Source: Chiloscyllium plagiosum (lineage: Eukaryota). From it: a stretch of DNA of 64,000 nucleotides. The notes below the pieces were generated by a model, which was not told the origin of the DNA, did not search any database, and was given only the letters and a program-made list of their open reading frames with translations. Positions 1,856-51,824 of the stretch are shown here, piece after piece; position 1 is the stretch's first letter; each line of letters starts with the position of its first letter. The stretch lies in contig NC_057751.1 in NCBI RefSeq assembly GCF_004010195.1, positions 17,771,768 through 17,835,767 on the forward strand, given 5' to 3'. The position numbers and the translations under genes were made by a program.

Positions 1856-4800
1856 TATTGACGAGGCTGGACCACACAAATCATGCTTAAGCAGGCAGCT
1901 CAGACCGTAGCTTTGCTATTTTTTTCAGTAAGAGAACAGTAAAAACTACCTAGCATAACTTAGCTAGGTTGACATCCAAGTTTTAAAACAAACAAAAAAG
2001 GTTTTCATCAAGTTATGGAATGAAACACCAAGAACAGAAAACAGAATATCCACAAAACTCAATGTATCCAAACTTAATTATGCTGTTCCTGAAATACACA
2101 ACAATCCCAAGAAACAAACCCTTGAAACACAGCGTAAAATGAGCCAGAGACTTACAGATCGAAATTAGAGGGGAAAAGGAGCGACAGAAATTCCAGTCTT
2201 AACTCAGACTGCCTCCAGAAGCCTTTCTTCACACGCATAAGTGCTCAACTGAACTAACACCCAAAATTCAGCTTTCAGGACTGATCACCCTCCTTTCATT
2301 ATAAAAATAACTTCTAAACCTTGAAATCTTTATTCTGAAGACTCGTTTGTTTATGTATGAACAGAAAAAAAAGCCTCTCAATACCTTTTTCGTCTATGTA
2401 CTAACCTAACCGATTGGGAGCTTTGGCTGTTTTGTGACCCTGCTTAAAAAAATCAAGGACCCAGCGTTCTTCAGAAAAGGTGCAGCTTTATATAAAGAAA
2501 CGAACAGATTTGTGACACCACCCCTTTAAAAATGTGAACTAACGATATCCAAAGATAGTTTCATTTTTAAATCCCTTCCAAATAAAATAAAACTCTTTAG
2601 TAACCTAAAACACACATACACACTGCAGTGATTATGTACGTTCAAACATGTGAAAACATATTCGAATTCGCCGTCGTACACTCACAACCGAGCGCCTCCA
2701 CATCTCATTCGTGTCTTGTCAATGCATCAGCAATCACATTTAAAGAGGAACTGCCACATGCACAATTGATAAGTTGAATGGCTGGAACAGGTTCCATTTA
2801 TGCAGTCTATTATTTTCGCCCTTACATTTCTCCACGAATGTCAATGGGTTATGGTCATAGGGTAATACAGTCATAGAGATGCACAGTACAGAAACAGACC
2901 CTTCGGTCCACTCAACTACGCCGAGCAGATATCCCAACGCAATCAACTCCCACCTTCCAGCACCCAGCCCATATCCCTCCAAATACTTCCAATTCATATA
3001 TCCATCGAAATAACTTTTAACAGTCGCAATTGTACTATCTTCCACAAATATAAACACTGAAATGTTGAAATACCAGCATCAATTTCAAAGACTTCCTCTA
3101 TAAAGTTGAGTATTTATATTGTTCAACTTGTTGCAAATAAAAGCCTGATGGGTCTTTTCATCCCACCGTAATCCACCTGCAGGAGCACTGCACAAACACA
3201 CACATCACTGGTGTCGTTAGCAACCTTCAAATGTTACACGTAATCAGGTGTGGTAATAATACTGGAGAAGTAGTTCTCGCAGTTTTAAGGCTGTCAAATG
3301 TGTCTTGACACTTTACCTCTAGCCCTTTTTTTTTACCAACCCTGTGACTGGAGCAGCCACACTGCCAAAATTCGGAGCAAACTTTTCGAAAAATCCACTC
3401 AATCCCAGGAACTGTAGTATTGTTCTTTTCATCGACGTTGTGGGGAATTCTACAATTGCTTTTAATTTCGCATCCTGCAAGGCCATGTATCTATGTCCAA
3501 TCACTTGGGCCAGAAAGGTGACTTGGGGCTTTGGCAAATTCACTTTTAAGTGGTTTACCACCAAACCTGCTTTCAGAAGTCGATCGAAAACGTCTAATAA
3601 ATGCTGTAAATGTTCCTTTCTTCAGTGAATAAAAATCACCAAATCATCAATATACACCACAAAATTGGGTATACAGCAATGACCTTATTCCTTAATGTCT
3701 GAAATGTGGCCAGAGGTTTCTCATACCAAATTGCCTGATTTTAAACTGGTATAGCCCATATGGCGTTACGAAAGCCAAAACTGCCTTTGCTCTTTCCGAC
3801 AAAACTACCTGCCAGTAGCTTCTGAGCAAGTCCAACTTATAAATGTAAGTTGTTTGCCTCTTCTTTTCGACACAGTCCTCCAACCGGGGAATTGAATCTG
3901 CTTTTGTCTTTGTAATGGCACTGACTTTGCGATAGTCCACACATAGCTGTTTAGTACCTTTTCGCTTTGATGCCATGATTATAGGTGAGTTGCTGTCACT
4001 GTAACTCACTTCAATAATGCCATCATGGAGCTCGTGTTCTATCACTTTCTGAAAATGTTCCAACTTTAGAGGGTTATAACAAAAACGATGTTGCTTAATT
4101 GGAACACCACCTCCTTTATCTCCATGAAACTTAATTTGTTTACTATTTCCCAGTTTATTTCTGCCTATCTACCACTGTGATTGTAATAACTCTTAAGGAC
4201 AATTCGTTTCTCTTGTCGAAAGTAACTCAATAATTTATCTCAATGTCTGAAAACTTTCTTTGAAAACTTGATTTGAGCAGTGCCGAATTCATAATCGTCT
4301 AAATTTGGTTCTTCCTATTGGTTGTTAACAATTAACACCTTCTGTTCTTACTTTCCTTCTCTGTCAAAATACCTTCAGACCATATTCGCATGATATTCTC
4401 TGAGAGATTTCTTCCTGTCTGGAGTCCCTGGAGTTCACCTCACTCAAGTTCCTCTTGATTTGATAAGGTCCACACAATCTTGTTTTTAAAGGTTCTTGTT
4501 TTACTGTGGCACCAATACAGAATTCCCAATGGCAAAGTTATTAATTTTTGAATTCTTATCCACCTGTTTCGTTAAATCCCGCGATACTTTTAAATGATGT
4601 CTAGCCAACTTCTGGGCTCTATTTCGTCGTTCTCTAAAATTTGACATATACTCCAAATGAATTCTAACTTATTAATTTCTCCTTAAACATTTTTAACGGT
4701 TCTCTTACTTTATGACCAAAATGGTCAGAATTTGGTCGATTGATGTGGTGCATCTCCGATCGCAACAAGCACAAAATGAACCTTCTTAGCCCAACTGTCT

Positions 4801-15740: not shown

Positions 15741-17004
15741 CCTACCGTTATAAAGAGGCGATTTGAAATGCCAAGGGCAGACGGGAGTGGATGGCGACAG
15801 CATTGAGTACTTTGGGCTCCAGGGTTGACTGGTGCTCCAGGAATGAAGCCACTCTAAACTGGAGCGGGGCACTGTCCCCGTTCAGCTCCAATCCAGGTGT
15901 GGGAGCAGCTCCTCAGGAAGAAGTTACCTTCTGGAGGAGCTCAGCACTGTCAGCTTACTAATCTGCGCTCGCTTGTGCAATAGACTGTTGGAATCAGTTG
16001 GAGAAGAGTAATTTTATTTATTGATATTTCATTTTGCTCTGGTTAAACACGAAAAGGCGACAACTCTTCTTCATGGGTAAGTGTAGGGGCTGTTTGTACG
16101 ACTTGACCCTGTCATTCAAGGATTTCAAGCAAAGGGTCGACGCCACTGTGTAAGGTGTCTTTGGATCAATTCTTTGATCCTGGGGAGTGGGAATAAGCAG
16201 CAGGGGGCAAGTCAGAGGAAGTAACTTTCTAATACAGCTGGGGAGTCGAAAACTGAACTCCAGTGAGCTCCAAGGCGCCTGCCCAGCAGATCTCTGCATT
16301 GGTACTTTGACTTATTGACACGGCCTCTCTGCAATGGTACATACTTTGAGTGAGTAAATGAGGAAGTCATGATTCAAAGTCTGAGACTCTATCCTTCTCT
16401 GTGTAATTATATTCTTTTATTTAATGTCATGCAATGCACCCCTCCCCTCAGCCGACCGACACTGCTCACGTTTCGACAGGGAATCACTCAGAGATGAAAC
16501 AGTCCATTGAGAGATGAGTCAATCCCCATCAAATTGCTTACGCAGTCCTGTCGGTTGGGTGCATTGACGCCAGATAACTTAGATGACCCCGTCCTCCAGA
16601 GGGATGTTTCCATAGACCATCAGAAGTAAAGGATGTGGAAAATTAGGGGACTGTAGGGCGACGCCACGTAACAGGTAATAAAATGTATAAAATCATAGCG
16701 GGTCATGCAACTCAATATTTCCCGCACTAACCGTTGCTCTGAGAACTACATCCAACTCCTCTTTGAAAACATAGAATATTTTGCAGCTGTGGCAGAGATT
16801 TGCACAGACTCCTGCACTCTGTCTCTGGACATTTACCCCATCTCATTCCAAGTCCTTATTCTCTGACTGTGATCCCTGGTTCGGGACTTTCCCTTTTTGG
16901 TCATCAGGAAAATGTGTCCTGCAATTGTCCTTAGCAACAAGCCCACCTGCAATGTGATATCTATTGGAAATATAAGAACTGCAAGAGAATCGTGAAAGGA
17001 TAGA

Positions 17005-17906
17005 TTAATAAATTGATCTGGTTAATTGATAAATCTGAGTAAATGGATATGCCAGCACTTTTCTTAACTGCTGTCTAAATTTAGTTTGGGTCGCGGTATA
17101 AATTGCAGTGTTGGTGCAGCAACTGAGAAGCTGCAGGACAAAACCCAATTCTTGCACATAAATGGTTGGATTTAGATTCGTTATCGACATAGATTCCAGC
17201 CGCCAGCTGACGGAAAAAAACATATGCAGTGACCATAGGAGGATAAAATTGGCAGAGAGGAGGAACAACAAGGTCATAGACTTTCTTCGACTCTCCATTT
17301 CTTGGTCTCTGGTAGCCTGTGCGTTGCTCTGAGTCCGGAGTCGCCTGCGGGCTCTGCTGGTCACTAAAATATGTCTGACCGTGAAAACATTAAGGAACAA
17401 TATCAGGACAAATGGAACACATGGATTTAAAACAACAAAAATGAGTTCAATTGCGCCATAAACTCCAGACCACTGACCAGTAGATGTTACCAAACAAAAC
17501 CAGGGGAAGTTATCCTTCCTATACCAAACCTCAAACATAAAATACCAGAACATATTTTTTACACAACTTGTCACAGTCACTGTTGCCAGAACCACAGTCG
17601 TCGTTTCCTTGCTGAAATATCTACTTTTCATCTTCTGGCAACAAATTGCCATAAATCGATCAAAGGTGAAAATAACTGTGAACCAGACAGAACAGTCAGT
17701 GGCTGCATATACCAGGACAGCGTGGATATTACACATATCGAGGAACATCAGGGCATAAATCGAATAAGTAATTGGCATGTGCCTCAATATCAGATCAATA
17801 ATAATGACGGAGAGATCAGCAATAGCCATAGCCAACAGGTATTGAGTGATACATCTAGATAGCCCGCAGTTTCTGCGAATCAGGATGAAAATTGTTATTG
17901 CATTAG
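17005..17906 (-). CDS. GPR139-like: GPR139-like GPCR exon 2 (end of TM1 to C-terminus)
   Basis: ORF 17005-17835 extends upstream in frame (NAITIFILIRRNCGLSRCITQYL) to the AG acceptor at 17908-17907. Confidence 0.9.
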
Positions 17907-20900
17907 CTGAAAAGAAGGAAAGGAAACAAAAAATCAGACATCAGCCGATAGGTGAAGACATTAGTTTGATTGAAAATCTTTTGAGATTTATGCATTTGCT
18001 CATCAACAGAAATGTTTGCATCTGAATTGCAAAATGACATTGTCTGATTTTCATTAAATGAGTTCAAACGACAGGGAGAACTCTCTCCTCAAACAGTAAG
18101 TTGTAAGACAGCAGGTTACACTCCAAGCAGTTCATCTGAAATCACAATATTTTGTTGTGTCGACCCTTCGTTCCCTCAACCTGTTGAAGAGGCGGCACTC
18201 CAAAAGCTTGTGACATGAAATAAGTTTATTGGACGAAGACTTGGTGTTGATGGCTTCTGGGTTTGTTCACCTCAACCCAAGAGTGGTATGTCCACCGTGC
18301 TAGGGCGGCACGGTGACACAGTGGTTAGCACTGCTGTCTCACAGCGCCAGAGACCCGGGTTGAAATCCGGCCTCAGGCAACTGCCTGTGTGGAGTTTCCT
18401 CCCACAGTCCAAAAATGTGCAGGTTAGGTGAATTGGCCATGCTGTACGACACCGTAATATTAGATGAAAGGATAAATTTAGTGGAATAGGTCTGGGTTGG
18501 TTGCTGTTCGGAGGGTCTTTGTGGACTTGTTGGGCCGAATGGCCTGTTTCCACACTGTGAGTAATCTAATCTAATTTCGTCACTCCTCATACCAACAGGT
18601 ACATATGCACAAGCTCATGTACGAATCTGTCACCATTAGATCATCGCAGAATAGACCCTGATCATTATTTAATATTCCATAATATGGAGGATATAAACAT
18701 TGTGAGACTGAAATATGCTATACAATTGCCGAAAACACAAACACTGTTTGAAAATTTCTTACTGTTTTGTTGCAAAATCGAGTCATCCCCTCTGTCTATC
18801 TGTGTGTGTCTGAATTCACGTGTTTGTGTGCATGTGTGAGCGTGTGTTTGTGTACGCTAGTTTGAGAGGGAGAATTGGACAATACAATGTATAGAATACT
18901 TAATACAGTACATAATGCAGAAGATAGAGGTGAGATTCAGTGCTCAGAGAGAATCGGGGAGGGATTTGGAGAAAACGGGATTGACAGTGGAACTGAGACG
19001 TGGCGGACTTGGAAGTGATGGGAAGAGCAGACTCACAATGGAGCAGCAAGTGATGGAGGGTCTGAGGTCATAAGGTCCTGAGACTGATGGAAGTGCCAGC
19101 AGTACTAGGTGTACATAGATTTACCACTGATCTGCAAGAGGTCGGGGAACATAGAGTGAGAACAGAGCTGTAATTGCCAGGGAAGTATCAATTGGCAGCA
19201 GAGCTAACCGTGATAAGGAATAACAGAGTAATAGAGCAGTGTGAAGCGACAAGATAGTTGTATTGCTCAGCTACGGCATTAGTTATCAGGGAAGTATGTA
19301 ATGCAATGGTATAAGGAGTTAAAGGATAGGATGGAGAAGCGCAGGATTATGCAGTGAGAGGGAAGTGTGCAATTTAAGAAACATTAGTGTCCTTGAATTC
19401 TCATGCTTTCATTCAAATCGATAAGATATCTCAAACAGGTAAAAGTATACAGATATTCTTAGTGGCAAAAGTAGTGGCTAACTAAAGTAGAACTAAAGAA
19501 AACGAAGGAAATGTAAAATTATTCAGTACAAAATGGAAAATGAAGTATTGACTGAAGACTTCAGGCTTTAGAAGAGACGTAGAATTGGGAGACAAACATA
19601 ATTCTGGAGAGGATTCTGGATTTAAACATTTTTCACTTACGGAACAAAGTAGAAACAACACTGCGTGCTTATGCACTCCCTTTGTTTTAATTTAAACATG
19701 CAATGTAGGTAGCAGTGGTCAGGGGAAAATATTCTGCCCATTCCTTGTTGCACAGAGGACATTTAAGGATCCACAGTATTGCTGTGCGTCTGGTGTCATA
19801 TGTAAGCCCCACCAGATAACGATGGCAGATTTCCCTACACTAAAGGGCACGTATACCAGATGGGTTATGCTCGAACAATTGAAATGGATTCGTGACCATC
19901 ATTAGACTCTATGTTCAAGATTTTGTTCTCGTTGAAGTCAAATCCCATTCTCTCGAAAGGCAGGCTTTGAATCCAAGTCTCGACCTACTCTTAGGAATAA
20001 TCAGTTACCGATATTCCCACTAACCCGTCGTGTCCCATTTACTAACAAAACACGAATCAAGTTTTGCCACACTCCAAATTCCACTTTAGATGAGAAACTG
20101 TTGCCCAACCATGGCAGAGTAGATCGTTGAATCCTTCTCCAGACAAAAATTAACTGCAGTATAACATTTCAATCACTCAGGGACATCTTTCTGCAAAGTT
20201 ATCTGACATCCTGAAGAAAGATAAATAAATTCAGCGGGCTAGTTAGTTTCTGTGACTTTTCAGTCTCTCAGAGCTGCCCAGAGGAATTCTTCTCAACATA
20301 AGCATTCCTAATTTCCTACTCAAAATGCAAAAATATATATGCAGTGGCATGGACCATTTTTGGACCATCCACTCGAGAAGCGTTCGGAATCCACTGAGAG
20401 GAGGAGGTACACGGGAGAGAGTGCAGAGAAGATTGATCAGGATGTTGCTCACTACTACAGAATGTTTGATATAAAAAGAGATTTCACAGAGTGGACTAGT
20501 TTTTCTTTCGTGTAGCAGCCAAAATCCGAAGTGTTGGCCATCGCTCAAAGAAATAAGGAGGCTGAGATAGTAACTCGGATCATTAAAATATTTTTGACTA
20601 TTCAAATATAGTTTTTCAGCGATCAAGAAACTGATAGGCCAATCTGTGAACAATCCGTAGAAACCTTCAAAACACAGAAATGAGTGGCGTGCTTTTGTTG
20701 GCAAAGTTGGGGATGGGCATGTGGTGTTTATTCATATGGAAAGACGAATTTAGATAGGACATTTGTGAATGCATTTCCGAAACAGCAGAGGGAAAAAAGC
20801 CAGAGAACATCTTAATTCCTGCACAGTTTCTTGTTGGATCGATAAGCATCCTCAGGACGAGCAGACCTTATATGAGGCTTGTCTCGTGGGTTCAATAACT

Positions 20901-21213
20901 GAGTCAGGAAATTAAAGGTAGGAATCAAAAAATCACTGAGTCTCAATCGAAACAACGCTAGCAGGGAATGTGACACAACGAATGAGCAGGGAGTGTGACA
21001 TAACGAATGATCAGGAATACACTCTTGTTAAACAATCAATAGCTGAATGGGAGACTTACCAATGACTCCAACAAAAGCCAGGATTGGGTACGAAAAATAC
21101 TGGATCACGAAAATCAAGCTTGCGAACCAAAAGTCTGACACAGTCGCCTTAGAAAGAGCGTAGAGAGACCAGGATAAATCCCTATCCATTGTCACAACTG
21201 TCCAATCTCCCAT
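17005..21213 (-). CDS. GPR139-like: Intact two-exon class A (rhodopsin-family) GPCR, GPR139/GPR142-like, 351 aa
   Basis: Exon 1 21213-21060 (51 codons + 1 nt, donor G|gtaagt); exon 2 17906-17005 (acceptor tttccttcttttcag|CT), phase-1 compatible with no stops. Seven hydrophobic segments: YPILAFVGVIANAITIFIL, YLLAMAIADL, SVWFTVIFTFDRFMAICC, TM4, LNPCVPFVLILFLN, RRKSMTLLFLLSANFILLW, LQLLSCCTNTAIY. Confidence 0.9.
18175..18300 (+). mobile_element. Decayed Penelope-type terminal fragment (second family) in the GPCR intron
   Basis: Similar to 52700-52824 ('ttgtga...aa...ttgga...tggtgttg...tccac'). Confidence 0.5.
18303..18575 (+). mobile_element. HE1-type SINE (internally deleted) in the GPCR intron
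   Basis: gggcggcacggtgacacagtggttagcactgctg...; tail taatctaatctaat. Confidence 0.85.
20370..20530 (+). mobile_element. CR1 ORF2 fragment in the GPCR intron
   Basis: 'gagagagtgcagagaagattgatcaggatgttg' = ERVQRRLIRML, a CR1 motif. Confidence 0.6.
21060..21213 (-). CDS. GPR139-like: GPR139-like GPCR exon 1 (N-terminus and first half of TM1)
   Basis: MGDWTVVTMDRDLSW...IQYFSYPILAFVGVI followed by a canonical gtaagt donor at 21059. Confidence 0.85.
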
Positions 21214-21826
21214 TCTCAGATCCTATCTCTGCTCTCGTTCTTTCTGGAGCAGCTAATCCCTGTTCGTGTTGAAGATCACGCTCTCACTGACATTGTGGGA
21301 TTACGCGCTGAAAACTGCCTCTTATTAAGGAAAGAGGGCAACCCTCCAGTGACACAATTAGGATCCACTGAGGGTGAATATTAGTCGCTCAAGAAAACAG
21401 ATCTTTGAATAAGCTGACTTTAAACCTTAGTACTATATTTACCTCAAAAGGCATAACAACTTTTCCTCCCGAAATTCATAAACTTTCGCAGCTTGGAAGC
21501 AAACAGTTTGGCTTATCCGCTGATCAACAGTGCTCTCTGTAGGGCAGAAAGTGAATGCCAATATATTCTGAATCAAAATTTTATCTCTCTGTATCTATGT
21601 CTCTCTCTGTCTCTGTGTCTCTCTGTCTCGCCCTCATTTGTGCACGAATGTTTATGCTCTGTCTGAAAATGTACTGCCATAATTTGAAGGCAACTAAATA
21701 CAACCTGTAACACCTCAAATTAATTAGAATTATTTCTGTCTTTCATTGATCCAGCAGCACATGCGTCAATTACTTCAATGTCAGGCGTGAAACTGCTTGT
21801 GTCTGTGCTCCCATGAAGGGACATTT

Positions 21827-38268: not shown

Positions 38269-39441
38269 TTCTAACTCAATTTTCCTCAATTGTAACTGCA
38301 AGTTTTTCTAACTCTCCTGCACTTTCATGTTTCTCTGACACACATTTCAGCTTTACTTTTGTCCTTTGTTAAACCTAATTGAAACCTCTTTGCGAATTAT
38401 AAAAGTACATTCTTTTCTTTCTAAACTTTCTTGGCAAATTTTGGAATTATCCTCAAACCCTAAAACGTCTTTATCAATTTTAAGAGCCTGTTGTCACTTT
38501 TTCTTGAAATTCAATAATCCACAAGTGACTAAAATTAAACAAATTGCCTGACCTGCAGTTTATTTTAATGTAAAGGGCACTAGTAGAAAAATTATTACAT
38601 TTGATGGGATCATTCGTACCCAAATCTGTTCAAAGCTGTCCAAATTTCAGACTGGATCTGTCTCAAACTTTCCAAATCACGGACGTGAGCCTCCAAACTG
38701 CTCGGACACAGTGTTAAGTCTTCTGCTTATCTCGCCCCGTACTCTGATAATGCATGACTGACAGCGAACGACCACACTCCACTATTTCAAGGATAAAAAA
38801 CGTTTTTCGTTTTCTCCAAAAGAGAACATTAAACAACAACTCTCTATAACTGGATACTCCATTCTCTTGAAGATTTGTTGTCCATCTCCAATTGCATAGT
38901 AAGATATTGATCCGATAAAACCTTTACTGAATTTGAAGCAAATTAATTTTTAAAATGACACCACGTGTGTTGTCTTCAGGTGTCTAACCCCCTCTTTATG
39001 TCAACCTCCCTGGGTTGCCTTCGCTCTTCTGTTGCGCAGATATTGGAGAGAAGGATTTCGGGCACTCTATGTGACAACGGGTGGCGTTGCTCTTTTTCTG
39101 TGTACCTAAAACAGTTGCTTTTTATTCCTGAAGCTATCAGGGCGTTTCATTGGTTCGATGATGTCAAAACAGTAATATTCAAATTCGATTGTGTTTAGCA
39201 CTTTGGAGTATCTATTAAACTGATTGGCTGAATCCGAACTGCTGTGAAAGCAAGTCAGTATCTAACGTAAACCCCAAGATGTTACATCTGTAAATTTTCC
39301 AGCGCACTCTGAGACATGCAAACTTTTCCAAGCTTTCATTCTCCCTGAAAGGTATTGTACACAGCTTCTACTTCAAAACACAAATGTTCTGTGATGTCGA
39401 ACAACAGTGCCTTCAACATTTTCAGAGAGCCTGCCATTTAC

Positions 39442-39826
39442 TCGAGTGTGTGTGTTGCAATCCTGATTTTTCAGTACCGTAAACATGAGCTTCACTCCTG
39501 TATCTTCCAGTTCACTACTACCCAGATTCCGATCCATCAGTGACCCGTTTGTACTGAGAACCGAGGCGAGGTCCTCAGCACAAGCATCTGAGGTATTTTT
39601 TGTTAGTGTGTCTGAATCACATATGATGATGAAAGGGAAATAGATATTAAAGCAACTCCAGTGAATACTGATAACTCTGCGCTTGATATCAGTAAAACAC
39701 GCAGTGTCAAACATTCAGTTATTATAAATATAGTTTCATCCAGGTACTTACTGCAGTTTCTGTATCTTGCAGTCTGAATTTCTCAGAGACTCAGAGCGCA
39801 CTTTTACACTTGAATTGCAACCCAAT
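39442..39826 (-). pseudogene. Two NLR LRR exons (39826-39752 and 39611-39442)
   Basis: LGCNSSVKVRSESLRNSDCKIQKL|gtaagt and SDACAEDLASVLSTNGSLMDRNLGSSELEDTGVKLMFTVLKNQDCN|gtaaat; ribonuclease-inhibitor-type LRR pattern with AG/GT boundaries. Confidence 0.8.
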
Positions 39827-41121
39827 CTTAGCAAATGGAATGAGAAGCAGCCCAAATCAAACCTCGCTTCTGATAATGCAATTTTTGTTGTTGCAGATAT
39901 TAGAACGCATATTAATACAGAAAATAAAATTATGGAAGGGAATGGAATAGATTTCTCCAGCGTTCACAATGAATCGCGCTCTACTGAACTACGTTCAGTG
40001 GTGGGCAATAAATACACTGCTACCTCCAGAAAACCACTATCTTATCTTAGTCCTCTGAGGATCAAAAGTGCTGTTGGAGGTGCCCACAGCCTTTACATTT
40101 CAGTAACCTTATCAGCATAATGGTCAGATTTTTAAACGTTTCCCAAACATCCCATGCAGAGACTTATCTCACACGTGAAATGGATTGGATGAAATGCCTG
40201 GTGACACTGTGATCTCCAAGGTCCTGCCCACAGTGTTTGAAGCGTTGTTATGCGACTGTGCTCTAGGGCTAATGTTTCACAACATTTTAGATTTCAGATG
40301 TTGAAGTTTAAAAGCGTGAATCCTCAAGAATGCGAATAGCGCTAACCATGTTAAATTAAGAGAATTTCCATTTTCCCAACCTAGAAATTTTCCCTTGACA
40401 AAACACCAAATTGGATTAAGTGTGGAATGATTATGAGTCCAAATTCAACTTGGTTTCTCAAAATGTCTTTTGAGAACAACGTTTTTTTTGTGAGCTTGTA
40501 CCTTATGCAGGTATAGCATCCTTTGTTTTACCTGGCACCTTCTGAACTAGCACTCTATTAAAACTGGCAAAAGCTTCACTCCAGAAATGACAGACGTTTA
40601 CTGTATTATCGCCATCTCAATGTAGTCAGTTGGGGGTGCTCTCTGCGGTACGTTTTATTTAAGGCAAGTTACATTATTTTTGGGGGGGAATTATGCCATA
40701 AATAATGAATAACTGAAATGTGTGCACTCCTGGTATTCTGATTCTTTCACTTTTTGTGTGTTTTCTTACATTTTGGACATCTTTATCAACTGACATAGGT
40801 ACTGGATAATAAAAATGTTGTTGTATTTATGTTCCACCATCTAGCCTTATGAGCTGAATTACAATAATTACATCAGCCACTTCCAGTGATCTCGACTTGC
40901 TGAGTGAACATAGACTGTAAAATCACTCCTGATCCAAAAGGATCAATTTTACGTTCTCTAGCGCTGTCAAAATAACAGAATGATTCCTTGCATTATTGAT
41001 ACTTTCCGTGTTGAAGCTACTTCTGTCGTTTAATGGTTCAACTCGTTCCGTTTATGACAGAGAAACAACAAAATGCATTTCTGACCACTAACTCATCCAT
41101 CAATTGGAAACCAGGAATTAC

Positions 41122-42802
41122 TGCAATGCCTTGTGCAGAACACATCCCTGTCATTGTAGAACTTCAGAACCAATGATACATCTTTCTAAATCGAACAGTT
41201 TTACTGTCGCACAGAGATCAATAGCCTGAGACAGGACCAAACACTCAATCGTTTCAGTCGCAGCTCGCGAAATGCAAGTGCTTGCATAGATTCCACAGTG
41301 ACCTGAGCCAGTGCTTTATTGTGAGACTCGATCAGATGGTGAAATACATTCTGGTGATTCCTCTTTACAGTTCCAGTATTTATGTTTTCACACCGTGCTC
41401 TAAAACTTATCCTTCACCCAGTCAGTCAGGCAAGAGTTTGCGTGATGACAAAATGGGCCGAGACACTCTTCAAGTAGCCGAGCTGGCTGGGCGGAGGCCA
41501 GACCAGCAAACAAAAACAGAGAAATATCTATAACGGAACATCAACATTGCTGTGGGATTCACGGATGAGCTTCTGTATGTTTCCGTTGACTGGAGGGAGG
41601 AATTGAGAGAATGCAGACACAAAACCTTGGATGATGAGTGGCGGGAATTTGCAAACTACACTCCGGGCAGAAACATTTTCTCTCCAAAAGTTTCATCAGG
41701 AACCCAGACAGGAACCGGGAGTGTGTCAGGTGGTACGGTATCAAATCTGTTTTTCCAAACACAATCTTCTTCTCAGAGACTCGAGCGAAGGCCATCTCCT
41801 GAAACTTTAGTAACACATGACAGGAGGTTTCCAACTCTCGGTCATGGATTTCCAGAATATTGCTAACCCAGTGGGAGTATTTTTGTGTGAATGGTCCTGG
41901 GAACGTGCTGCTGTTTCCTGTGAAGAAGGGAGTCCAGTGAAAGGCCGAGGATCCTGCAGTACGAACGGTTGTACCTTATGGTGAACTGGAGCTCATTCGC
42001 CTCCACGTATTTGAAAGCGATGCTGACACTTACCAATCTCCAAAAAAGAACTTGAAGTATTCCTTTCGGCTCAGCACTAACAATTCCCGGATTTCGTATC
42101 AGACGTTGATCTCAAGCCTATTCCAATTAATGCCATGCAGTGGGACGAGTAATCAATAAAACTGAAAATCCTGGAGGAAGCTTGCATTGGATTAAGTGGC
42201 ACACACTGTCAGACACTTCACAACAGTTTTTAAAATCTGTGCACATGTAGTTTCTGTAGTTTTCCGATTCTCAGCAAAATCGATAGTGTCCATGAATTAA
42301 TCCAAACAATTGAATATACAAAGCAAACCCTCTGACTTCTTCCAAAGCACTCCCAAGCATTCCCGAAGTAAGGATATTGCTCCAGTGTGAAATTCCGCAT
42401 GTTAATCTTGTTCAAATCACGAAATTTAAAGCTTACATCAAATTTAAAATCCTGGCGCACTTTCTCAATTACCCAGTCATAAACTATTTTCATATCATTG
42501 CCTTTTTTTGTAATCTATGGGACACCACTCATGAGGATAAACTGCTCTTCAACAACGAGTCGTTTCAATTTTATTTTTCATTCCTCTTCGGAGATGTTTC
42601 TTTCTCCAATCCTTACGATATCACCCTGATACCAGCATATCATGCTCTACCAGTGTACGATCAGGTAAAGCAGAAATTATTGTTAGCTCAGCATATCGAT
42701 CAAACAGCTGGAAAGTGTTCTTTATCTCCTTTACTTGAACCATGCTCATTCGCAGGATTACAGTGTGCAACTCTAGTGTCTCATTTTCTTTCTCTTGAAT
42801 TG
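41122..42802 (-). pseudogene. NLR (NLRP3/NLRC3-like) large exon: FISNA-like + NACHT + winged helix + helical domain; pseudogene
   Basis: FQLFDRYAELTIIS..LVEHDML; degraded Walker A (SGVP*ITKK) before KIVYDW; FKFRDLNKIN; EQYPYFGN; LLKFQEMAF.RVSEKKIVF; FLSGFLMKLLE; SVVCKFPPLIIQGFVSA; HLIESHNKALAQVTV; many stops and frameshifts. Confidence 0.88.
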
Positions 42803-42859
42803 CTTCAGTACGAGCAGACAGAAAGTGATTTCCATGATATTTAGTTATCTTGAATAACT

Positions 42860-43815
42860 TTTCGGTGAGATGGCGATAGAAAGAATGTTGTGAAACTTGA
42901 GAAGGTTAAGATCAGATTTACAAGAATGTTGCAGGGTTCAGGGGCTTGAGGTATATCGAGAGAGTTTGAATCGGCTGTGGCGATTTTCCCTGGAGCATCG
43001 GAGGCTGAAGGCTGACCTTACAAAAGTTTTTAAAATTAGGGGAACATGGATAGTTTGAATTGTCATGGTCTATTTCCCTGGTGTGGGAGTCCAAAAGGAG
43101 ATGGATAAATTGGATTGAAGACTCTTTATTCGAGCTATACAGTGCTATATCTCTATTGAACGGTCAATGGATTAGTGTGACATTTGATTTGCAGCTTCGA
43201 TGACTGTTGAAGCATTTAAGATATGGTCACTTTAAACGCCACTTAGAAGTTAATACCAGTGGAGAAAATTTTTAATTTTTTCACAGAATTCTAATTGTTG
43301 CACATGGAGATTTTTCTCGTTATATATGGTAGATTGATAGAGATGTCCAGAATGGAAACTGACCCTGCTGTCAAGCCCGGCCATGCTGGCCACGTACTTT
43401 AAATGTATCTCATCACATTTGGCAGCGTTTGGCCCATATCTCTCCGAACACTTCCTTTTCATGTACATAACCAGATTCCTCCAAGCTGTTTTAATTATCT
43501 CAGCCTTCAACACATGCTGTGGCAGCTCATTCTATGCAGGCACCACCCTCCACGTGAATAATGTTTCCCCTTGGATCGATTTCTAAACGTTCCTCTCTCA
43601 TCCTAAAACTTTATGCTCCAGTTCTGGACGCCATTACACCAAGGAAGAGACTTTGCTCATTTACCCTGTTCATGCCTTCATGATTTTCTTAACCTCTATA
43701 AGGACACTTCTCACCTCCGACGCTCCAGGCAAAACAGCCCCAGACTATTCAGACTCTATCGATAGGTAAAAAATTCCAATGCCAGGATGCTTGTTTTTTT
43801 CTGAAACCTTTCAAA
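42860..43815. mobile_element. Two CR1 fragments (+ 42860-43110; - 43330-43815)
   Basis: 'gttgtgaaacttgagaaggtt...tttacaagaatgttg' (+) and a minus-strand 3' end with 'YMKRKCSERYGPNA'. Confidence 0.7.
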
Positions 43816-49975: not shown

Positions 49976-51824
49976 CATGTACCTCTTATGCTTGCATCAT
50001 CTTTCTTTCTGGTTTCACCTGTGTGTAGTGTTGTTCATGCTCTGCGTTGTTCAGCCACAGAGTATTCAGCCCCGTCCACGCTTAATTTCCCCTTTGGTAG
50101 ATTTGCAGCAATTTGTGGTCAAAGTTAAAAGCAAATTATTGCACTGCCAGAACCACAGCGTTAGTTCTATCAACAAGTGCTGTTTTCCTCTCTTTTCTTC
50201 AACAAAACCTGACGACTTTATATCGTAAGATGAACATATAACAAATAATCCTGGATGCGAGTATGTCGATTATTTGCATACGGTTAGAACTTCATTGCAC
50301 CCTTCCGTTTTCATTTTGTTTCCTTAGACACTTGCAGTGAGTTTTTAAATCCGTAAGAGACTGAAAACTCCGAACACCAAACTTGATTATAATGACACAG
50401 AAATGAAAGGGGTCTTTGACATATTTTTTTTCTTTAGGATATCCTGCAGATTCATTTTTCCTTGCTTCGAACACTTTATTTTTTCTTATATTATAGCATA
50501 ATAGCAATAAATGGCATTTCGAACTCATTTTACAAAGAGCACATTCATCCAGCTGGAAAGATTGAAGGTGATTCAGAAGTTTTTTTTAGGTTAGTGGTCA
50601 AATTAATTCGAGATGTGAATTGAAGGACTGACCGACAGTTGTTCAAGCAATGTTTCTCTTTATTTTGTACTTCCTTTCATAAACTTGCAAAGGCAGAGAC
50701 CTTTTTGAAAACTTAACAGTTCCCAAATTATGCTCTGGTCGCGTAAGTATTCCTGAAGGACTTCGTCTCAATGCAGAAGTTCATTGGTGATTTTTATTGT
50801 TATGGACGAGAGCAGACCAGACCACAAATGTACCCCCCACGTCCAATTCCAGCCAACCCTCAAGCCAAGGTATATTATGGGAATAGCACAAATCCCAACA
50901 AGTATATTTTTCAAATGACAAGAGTAAGGCATTTTTTTCCAAACATAATTTGATTTCACTACCACGAAATTTTCATCAAAACATACCATATTCTGACGGG
51001 ACAACTGAAATAAAACTTAAAAAGGATTTTACTGTGTTGCCATCCTTAACAAGCTAATATATTATTTACCCAGATTAAGAGCAGCGAGGCTATTCTGCAG
51101 CTCGAAATAACCCTGGTTAGACCACAGTTAGTATGTTGTCATTAGTTCTGGAAGTTTTAAGAAGGGTGCAGAGGAGATTTACCGGAATGCTGCTGCATGG
51201 GTTTTAGGGTATGTATTAATAAGGGAGGTTGAGGAGGCTACACCTTTTCTCATTGAAGCGAAGAAGGATGAGAGGTGACCTGATAGAGGTGTACAAGATG
51301 ATGTGAGGCATAGGTAGAGTGGATAGCCAGAAACACCTTCGCAACAGAATGCAAAACGGCAGCTCCAAGAGCAACCAAATTAATAACGATGTGAAAGGAA
51401 ATCTGTTCAATCTGTGTTAACCTTGTTGTGTTCATTCATTATTTTTTCATCTTACTGAAAAAGTAAAATCAACCAGGGAGAAGTCACAGCTATTGACCCC
51501 GCTGCCTGTCTGAGGAGACATTTCGGCACGAATGTGACAGGACTCCTCTGCAAGGGAAACAAGTCAGAGTCTCTTATGGGGACAATATCGCCACGATGTT
51601 TCAAACATATAGGCGAGAATGAAGAATGATTCAGAAGTGTAAGTCTGTAAACTGTGGATTATAGGGGGAAAAACAAAAAAAAAAACATTGTCTTTCAAAC
51701 ACTTAATGTTCTTGGAAAAAAATCCAAATTTGATTCACAGACAGTTTTGTTTTACCTTGATAGGAAAATCTTGAACTAGAGCTCGGAACCCGACGTCGAG
51801 GGTTCTGACAATGTGGTCCAAAAG

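Follow-up and report, generated by a model that had tools for sequence, protein, structure and literature searches.

An intact GPR139-like receptor gene of Chiloscyllium plagiosum belongs to a large chondrichthyan receptor family, likely an overlooked set of chemical sensors

The stretch of 64,000 nucleotides from the shark Chiloscyllium plagiosum analysed here (contig NC_057751.1, positions 17,771,768 to 17,835,767; hereafter the window) contains an intact gene for a G protein-coupled receptor (GPCR) that resembles GPR139, and the question raised by this locus is whether the gene is a divergent oddity, an orthologue of GPR139 or a representative of something larger. On sequence comparison, it belongs to a large, chondrichthyan-only family of class A GPCRs that is related to but distinct from GPR139, and in sharks and rays this family probably represents a set of chemical sensors that has been overlooked. 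The gene itself, on the minus strand, is a genuine class A GPCR gene with two exons and 351 codons, whose spliced frame runs from a start ATG at 21213 to a stop ending at 17005 without an internal stop. Coding exon 1 (21060..21213) specifies the N-terminus and most of transmembrane helix (TM) 1, and coding exon 2 (17005..17906; P0001) the end of TM1 to TM7, helix 8 and the stop. The sole intron (17907..21059, minus strand; 3153 nt, phase 1) has a GT donor at 21059 and an AG acceptor that ends at 17907 and is preceded by a pyrimidine tract, and the spliced junction reads AFVGVIANAIT. The original prediction of a two-exon, 351-residue open reading frame (ORF) with canonical splice sites was therefore correct, with the ATG, the GT..AG boundaries and a single terminal stop all in place. 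Exon 1 resembles the N-termini of five Stegostoma proteins (P0004-P0007, P0023; 62-70% identity), which backs the gene model. The position of the acceptor is backed by a close paralogue at single-copy depth in runs X3 and X4 (window 17764-17976), since it shares the intron end and acceptor region with 31 differences over about 210 nt.

Exon 2 matches the Pfam family 7tm_1 at E=2.4e-14 (53.9 bits against a cut-off of 30.5), and the receptor scores 448 bits against the profile of its own family. The class A residues D2.50, C3.25, D/E-R-Y/F, P5.50, W6.48, N7.49 and Y7.53 were all found, while P6.50 and P7.50 are missing. The AlphaFold model (predicted local distance difference test score, pLDDT, 87.9) has a beta-hairpin in extracellular loop (ECL) 2 and reaches TM-scores of about 0.7 against class A structures, and a fold search ranks it among peptide receptors. 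All five motifs quoted in the original prediction occur in the protein, namely MCNIH at residue 109, DRF at 134, PWFCL at 186, FILLWSL at 272 and NTAIY at 317. The N-terminus had also been said to have no N-glycosylation sequon, which is true; in fact, no N-x-S/T is found anywhere in the 351 residues. The N-terminal sequence given for the 351-residue form, MDRDLS, is present, but it marks the second ATG at 21189 and hence a form of 343 residues, the longer form starting eight codons upstream. Each of the two ATGs is flanked by an A at -3 and a G at +4; among homologues, P0004 and P0005 start at the position of the second ATG, and P0006 and P0023 start one 14-residue repeat earlier.

How large is the group to which this receptor belongs? 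Exon 2 retrieved 1284 proteins at E<=0.001, and the best 120 of these were used for counts and alignments. Of those 120, 118 are named and all 118 are from sharks (Heterodontus contributes 41 clusters and Heptranchias 31), 117 of them carrying the automatic name 'probable/putative GPR139'; the family proteins are thus already in the databases, under a machine-made name. The closest homologues among the matches listed are zebra shark proteins at 68-70% identity. We looked up 20 of 150 listed representatives: ten mid-range ones (34-44% identity) all came from sharks, rays, skates or chimaeras, and ten weak full-length ones comprised one protein each from a coelacanth, a salamander and a teleost, an FMRFamide receptor from a springtail, and six proteins without a name. 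The words CGLS, DCSVWF, DRF, PWFC, RRKS, NTxIY and TQxxFR, which are typical of the family, are all present in the window protein. In two trees, both built without true GPR139 and GPR142 sequences and without the long-branch outgroup rows P0265 and P0270, the window gene paired with Stegostoma P0004 (100/92 and 100/99) inside a chondrichthyan-only clade (93/91 and 92/91; 92-93 bootstrap, below the starred level). This expansion and two apparently single-copy relatives formed a vertebrate clade at 100/100, with four or five unnamed proteins of invertebrate type as outgroup. An amphibian/sturgeon gene was sister to the expansion at a Shimodaira-Hasegawa-like approximate likelihood ratio test (SH-aLRT) value of 80 in a quick tree and at 90/88 in the first of the two trees; the second, to which shark single-copy genes had been added, does not resolve this sister. 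Homologue listing, representative look-ups and trees agree with the earlier proposal of a chondrichthyan-expanded, little-characterised family, and what was found is an expanded clade rather than the one-to-one GPR139/142 orthologue that had been named beforehand as the contrary outcome.

Sequencing depth also speaks to the size of the family. In two DNA runs from other individuals, contigs of the window locus have a depth of 16-46, and contigs at least 80% alike add up to 319,786 and 177,920 where TM3 ends; their depth peaks over three conserved parts of the coding sequence. We divided summed depth, which is not a copy number, by 31 overlapping words per base (a figure that presumes the assembly word length) and by the highest single-locus depth. 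The result suggests at least about 200 look-alike copies in C. plagiosum, genes and pseudogenes together, and is to be read as an order of magnitude. A literature search, with most subscription journals outside its reach, found no description of a shark or chondrichthyan GPR139-like expansion. The expansion is not mentioned in the main text or in 12 of the 24 supplements of PMC8455134, which describes cartilaginous fishes as GPCR-poor, and the main text of the catshark sensory genome study PMC11979771 contains no mention of 'GPR'. A family numbering hundreds, diversified in its ligand face and filed under a single automatic name, would alter the receptor count of cartilaginous fishes, whatever the tissue in which it works.

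The relation to GPR139 is one of partial likeness. Human GPR139 (PDB 7VUG, 9M42) is the best PDB match of the family profile (E=6.9e-22) and, like the family, has N5.58 and no proline at 7.50, its TM7 reading NFFLY. Unlike the family it has P6.50, and since it has neither C3.25 nor the ECL2 cysteine, the cysteine pair sets the family apart. Copy number differs as well, with hundreds in the expansion against one gene each for GPR139 and GPR142, both of which are single genes in mammals. A 2019 survey by Rinne et al. (PMC6504862) named the orphans near GPR139/142 GPR210A and GPR210B; sharks are not mentioned in the text of that survey. Orphans of this type in bony vertebrates are the nearest non-chondrichthyan relatives (27-30% identity) and comprise two apparently single-copy genes which, unlike the shark family, are not expanded in the match lists and have no excess of variation in the outer loops. 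The first of the two genes, the P0246 group, occurs in coelacanth, teleosts, amphibians, reptiles and sharks, and the second, the P0249 group (P0289-P0308), only in amphibians and sturgeon among the matches listed; each may correspond to GPR210A or GPR210B. The coelacanth and salamander proteins score just 70 and 53 bits against human GPR139, and we therefore regard them as further orphans. Sharks also hold a separate, apparently single-copy coelacanth-type gene (P0313, P0316, P0320; orthologues at 60-66%), which falls into a different clade from the expansion. Two database entries of the coelacanth-type group are named TMEM183A isoforms, a hint at a neighbouring gene, and the P0249 group, whose conservation is about 70% and whose outer loops hardly vary, which is unusual, is a candidate receptor for a fixed ligand. 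Further out lies the protostome W/Y/F-amide supergroup (MIP, proctolin, FMRFamide and myosuppressin receptors), described as sister to GPR139/142 (PMC8557429). An FMRFamide receptor is among the weak matches found here, and feature look-alikes include the Srw and Srx families; identity to this supergroup is 23-28%, and it falls outside the vertebrate clade in our trees.

The window gene had been called divergent on account of non-canonical activation motifs. This does not hold, since the same motifs match the family consensus: among the 120 homologues, DRF is found in 117, W6.48 and C3.25 in all 120, N7.49 and Y7.53 in 118 and T7.50 in 116, and none of the eight commonest TM6 words contains a proline. 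The motifs are therefore ruled out as a peculiarity of this gene. The same applies to sequon absence as a family trait, given that 54 of the 90 homologues with a scorable N-terminus have a sequon, mostly within a 14-residue tandem repeat. Across P0002-P0121 this N-terminal repeat occurs in zero to four copies, each beginning with Met and often holding a sequon; one to four copies are present in 56 of the 90 scorable N-termini and none in 34, so the repeat is common without defining the family. In the window gene it is reduced to a remnant without a sequon, and by comparison with its homologues the loss is a trait of the gene's own sub-branch, in which the repeat has eroded. A variable glycan stalk or a set of alternative starts are candidate roles for the repeat.

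Having placed the gene in this family, we compared how its outer and inner faces vary. Regions were assigned by topology, and as a measure we used the mean pairwise protein distance of the outer loops divided by that of the inner loops together with helix 8. The ratio was 2.01 for the 120 matches, 2.88 for the 41 Heterodontus (horn shark) proteins and 2.87 for 11 Rhincodon (whale shark) proteins, compared with 0.63 for 22 amphibian orthologues and 1.06 for 47 members of the coelacanth-type gene that served as controls, and the inner face is conserved far more in the expansion than in the controls. This outer-loop excess over apparently single-copy controls is the pattern expected of a sensing repertoire with diverse ligands. 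Within the 120 homologues the deep pocket is conserved and charged (across the wider family, deep positions vary as well), and the variable positions are 5.43, 6.51, 6.54, 6.58, 7.32 and 7.35; the set of pocket-rim positions was picked after viewing the shark data and was not used as a test. The GPR139 agonist site for Trp/Phe is formed by E108, F109, H187, W241, R244 and N271 (PMC7318219). Mapped by eye, three of these six are kept in the family (the aromatic residue at 3x33, His 5x43 and Trp 6x48) and two of six in the window protein (Y118 and W276). The protostome relatives bind aromatic-amide peptides (PMC8557429), and because the aromatic site is partly kept and this sister group consists of aromatic-amide peptide receptors, small peptides or amino-acid derivatives are, by analogy, the most likely ligands of the family.

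What, then, might hundreds of such receptors be for? We regard it as an even call that the family is an external chemosensory repertoire, most likely olfactory, for ligands of the peptide or amino-acid type. In such a repertoire, the conserved charged deep pocket (D2.57, R2.61, H3.28, Y3.33, E5.39, H5.42, W6.48, R6.59, E7.36) would anchor a head group shared by the ligands, specificity would be determined by the variable rim of the pocket together with ECL2 and ECL3 so that each member could take a different ligand, and the near-invariant TM3 end, N5.58, R6.30 and TM7/helix 8 would link all members to one G protein. Copies would be born by duplication and then die, as exemplified by a remnant 29 kb away, and the olfactory epithelium is predicted to be the likeliest site of activity. 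Two features of a repertoire are in fact observed, namely many copies with gains and losses, and a ligand face that varies beyond the controls. As a working model, the family shares with the vertebrate chemoreceptors OR, TAAR, V1R/ORA and V2R a large copy number, pseudogenes, a short N-terminus, a variable ligand face and a fixed signalling face; it differs in having two coding exons and in showing no sequence relation to them beyond class A. Sharks have large noses yet, as reported in PMC10116579, only 34 V2R genes and four to nine genes in each other family. It is a tentative proposal, and a somewhat bolder one, that sharks, rays and chimaeras hold a fifth smell-receptor family of hundreds of genes, outnumbering the V2Rs and drawn from the GPR139-related branch of neuropeptide receptors, with the window gene as one member; if true, this would overturn the view that large shark noses run on a few dozen receptors.

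Several observations weigh against a chemosensory role or against the window copy taking part in it. The family does not retain E108, R244 and N271, which are polar contacts in GPR139, the fold search did not single out GPR139 (rank 36), and the variability of the outer loops may instead reflect relaxed constraint. Transcripts of the window copy were not seen in X5, a single-cell run labelled as the same species (tissue unstated, about 2% of the run used): none of 62 partial reads placed on exon 2 at 80% likeness was at least 95% alike, and no read crossed the 21060/17906 junction, so that the splice was not seen in RNA. The 50 most specific genes of catshark brain and nose reported in PMC11979771 include no GPCR, a weak negative because sparsely expressed receptors would be missed. 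The upstream sequence, where a chemosensory receptor gene would be expected to have an Lhx2/Ebf-type promoter, points both ways: a homeodomain-type TAATTG followed by a degenerate O/E-like word (21344..21360, minus strand, 147 nt above the first ATG) is a candidate promoter element, but this composite pattern, fitted by eye, was also matched in 15 of 100 shuffles, and no strict O/E site was found within 600 nt upstream at up to one mismatch. The same 600 nt hold four homeodomain words, compared with 1.28 per tile (6% of tiles reach four; four patterns were tried), and two CTAATT words where 0.24 per tile are expected. Finally, a pseudogene of the NLR type lies between the receptor copies and hints at an immune-type neighbourhood.

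Paralogues, on the other hand, do appear among the reads. At 93% likeness, nine X5 reads over 17710 all carried paralogue letters, some loose read ends resemble the P0017-type subfamily when translated by hand, and paralogue reads also occur in run X7, whose tissue is unstated and whose nature as RNA is a guess. Since such reads occur in a single-cell run, relatives of the window gene are transcribed somewhere. In addition, 14 X5 reads (window 17612-17735) leave the family sequence at 17632 and continue into unrelated sequence; they may stem from a truncated copy that is transcribed, or from a chimera.

An immune or barrier sensing repertoire is unlikely, though it deserves to be taken seriously. 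By analogy with formyl-peptide receptors or MRGPRs, the family could serve leukocytes or cells of the skin or gut in sensing peptides that come from microbes or from damage, and the same pattern of a variable outer and a fixed inner face would be expected. The broken NLR gene in the same 64 kb and the paralogue reads in the single-cell library and in X7 fit this possibility, as does the reported absence of MAS1 and its relatives from cartilaginous fishes (PMC8455134), which would leave a MAS1-type niche open there. Set against this, the NLR remnant may merely mark a duplication-prone region, and, among known receptors, those of neural or neuropeptide type are the nearest relatives.

Slightly less plausible again is that the copies arose largely by passive segmental duplication. 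Many of them, perhaps the window gene included, would then be redundant or in decay, and the loops would vary because constraint is weak. Here the state of the window copy matters. It departs from the family at 22 of 149 near-invariant sites, the third highest value of 121 (median 2.7%); its four nearest full-length relatives depart at 14-21. Twelve of the 22 departures are not common to five near relatives, among them an intracellular loop (ICL) 2 cysteine and the change of the family's His 5x43 (H5.42) to Phe; on this replacement, the copy has probably either shifted to another ligand or begun to decay. Compared with the window copy, four codons are listed as different in other individuals (R11T, K22A, V178I and T299P). 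All four changes are non-synonymous and all lie in the extracellular N-terminus, ECL2 or ECL3, a distribution that also fits the chemosensory reading; these may stem from very close copies, and paralogues can mask differences in conserved stretches. In one of four other individuals (run X4), an exon 2 contig with a one-base gap may represent a frameshift allele. These departures and alleles, the missing transcript of this copy among the reads examined and the decayed copy nearby would all suit passive duplication. On the other side, the 1053-nt frame is still open over a terminal branch of 0.28-0.30 changes per site, where by our arithmetic about six stops would be expected had the branch been neutral throughout, given that 4.3% of base changes create stops. 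Moreover, 14 of 32 differences to paralogues in the 40 of 72 rows covered are synonymous, compared with 22% expected, the inner face is far more conserved than in the controls, and the family ranges from chimaera to sharks. On balance, we lean towards the window copy being a working receptor, perhaps under relaxed constraint; it is an ordinary, slightly eroded family member that adds little alone.

Internal-signal sensing in brain, gut or endocrine cells, where the receptors would respond to endogenous peptides or dietary amino acids in the manner of GPR139 and GPR142, appears improbable. GPR139 is the closest solved relative, and the family retains three of the six pocket residues named for it, but fixed-ligand receptors keep the outer face conserved, as both single-copy controls do, and a few hormones would hardly explain hundreds of copies. 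A fast-evolving true orthologue of GPR139 or GPR142 can be set aside almost entirely, because despite the database label and the PDB match the window protein reaches just 23 bits (E=4.7e-4) to human GPR139, compared with 450 to shark paralogues and 76-81 to other bony-vertebrate orphans, and has the 3.25/ECL2 cysteines that GPR139 is without; moreover, high conservation of GPR139 among vertebrates has been described (PMC12208981). 'GPR139-like' is a best-match label and does not denote orthology.

Of 161 stop-to-stop ORFs of at least 75 residues in the window, 143 were run against Pfam, the other 18 being the receptor's own frames, frames of short interspersed elements (SINEs) and antisense frames of retroelement ORFs. 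Six of the 143 gave matches, four to reverse transcriptase (RT), one to an endonuclease and one to NOD2_WH. The receptor had been called the only clearly intact gene in 64 kb, and no second intact gene was found among the scanned ORFs, although small exons could escape such a scan. A decayed paralogue, the remnant mentioned above, lies at about 49976-50546 on the plus strand, opposite to the intact gene, and spans TM3 to TM6 in three frames with stops (tblastn E about 1e-9; family profile E 1e-7, 9e-5 and 1e-3). It is closer to a distant subfamily, with P0012 as best match, than to the intact receptor, and it had not been listed in the original prediction. The broken NLR (NACHT-type) gene occupies 39400-42950 on the minus strand, with many stops and frameshifts; its NOD2_WH match is at 41562-41975 (E=5.2e-7), and an exon near 39500 is presumably leucine-rich-repeat-like. 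Weak tblastn matches at 27.7, 33.8 and 60.1 kb were rejected as paralogues, being retroelement pieces that P0026 and P0093 carry in mis-annotated N-termini; this was checked by eye for P0026 alone.

Retroelement remnants with RT and endonuclease pieces lie at 3230-4168 (minus strand), 27-38 kb and 60-63 kb; we take them to be a long terminal repeat-type RT at about 3.7-4.2 kb and several pieces of RT and endonuclease of the long interspersed element type. Inside the receptor intron, a SINE-like repeat spans about 18303-18577, and the stretch 20416-20609, with depths of 32 and 119 compared with 5-16, may be a low-copy repeat or an element common to close paralogues. AATAAA words at 16416-16421 and 16013-16022 (minus strand), 0.6 and 1.0 kb past the stop, are candidate poly(A) signals, with no reads there. 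Two 16-bp tandem arrays lie at 615-1192 (36 copies) and 1518-1763 (15 copies).

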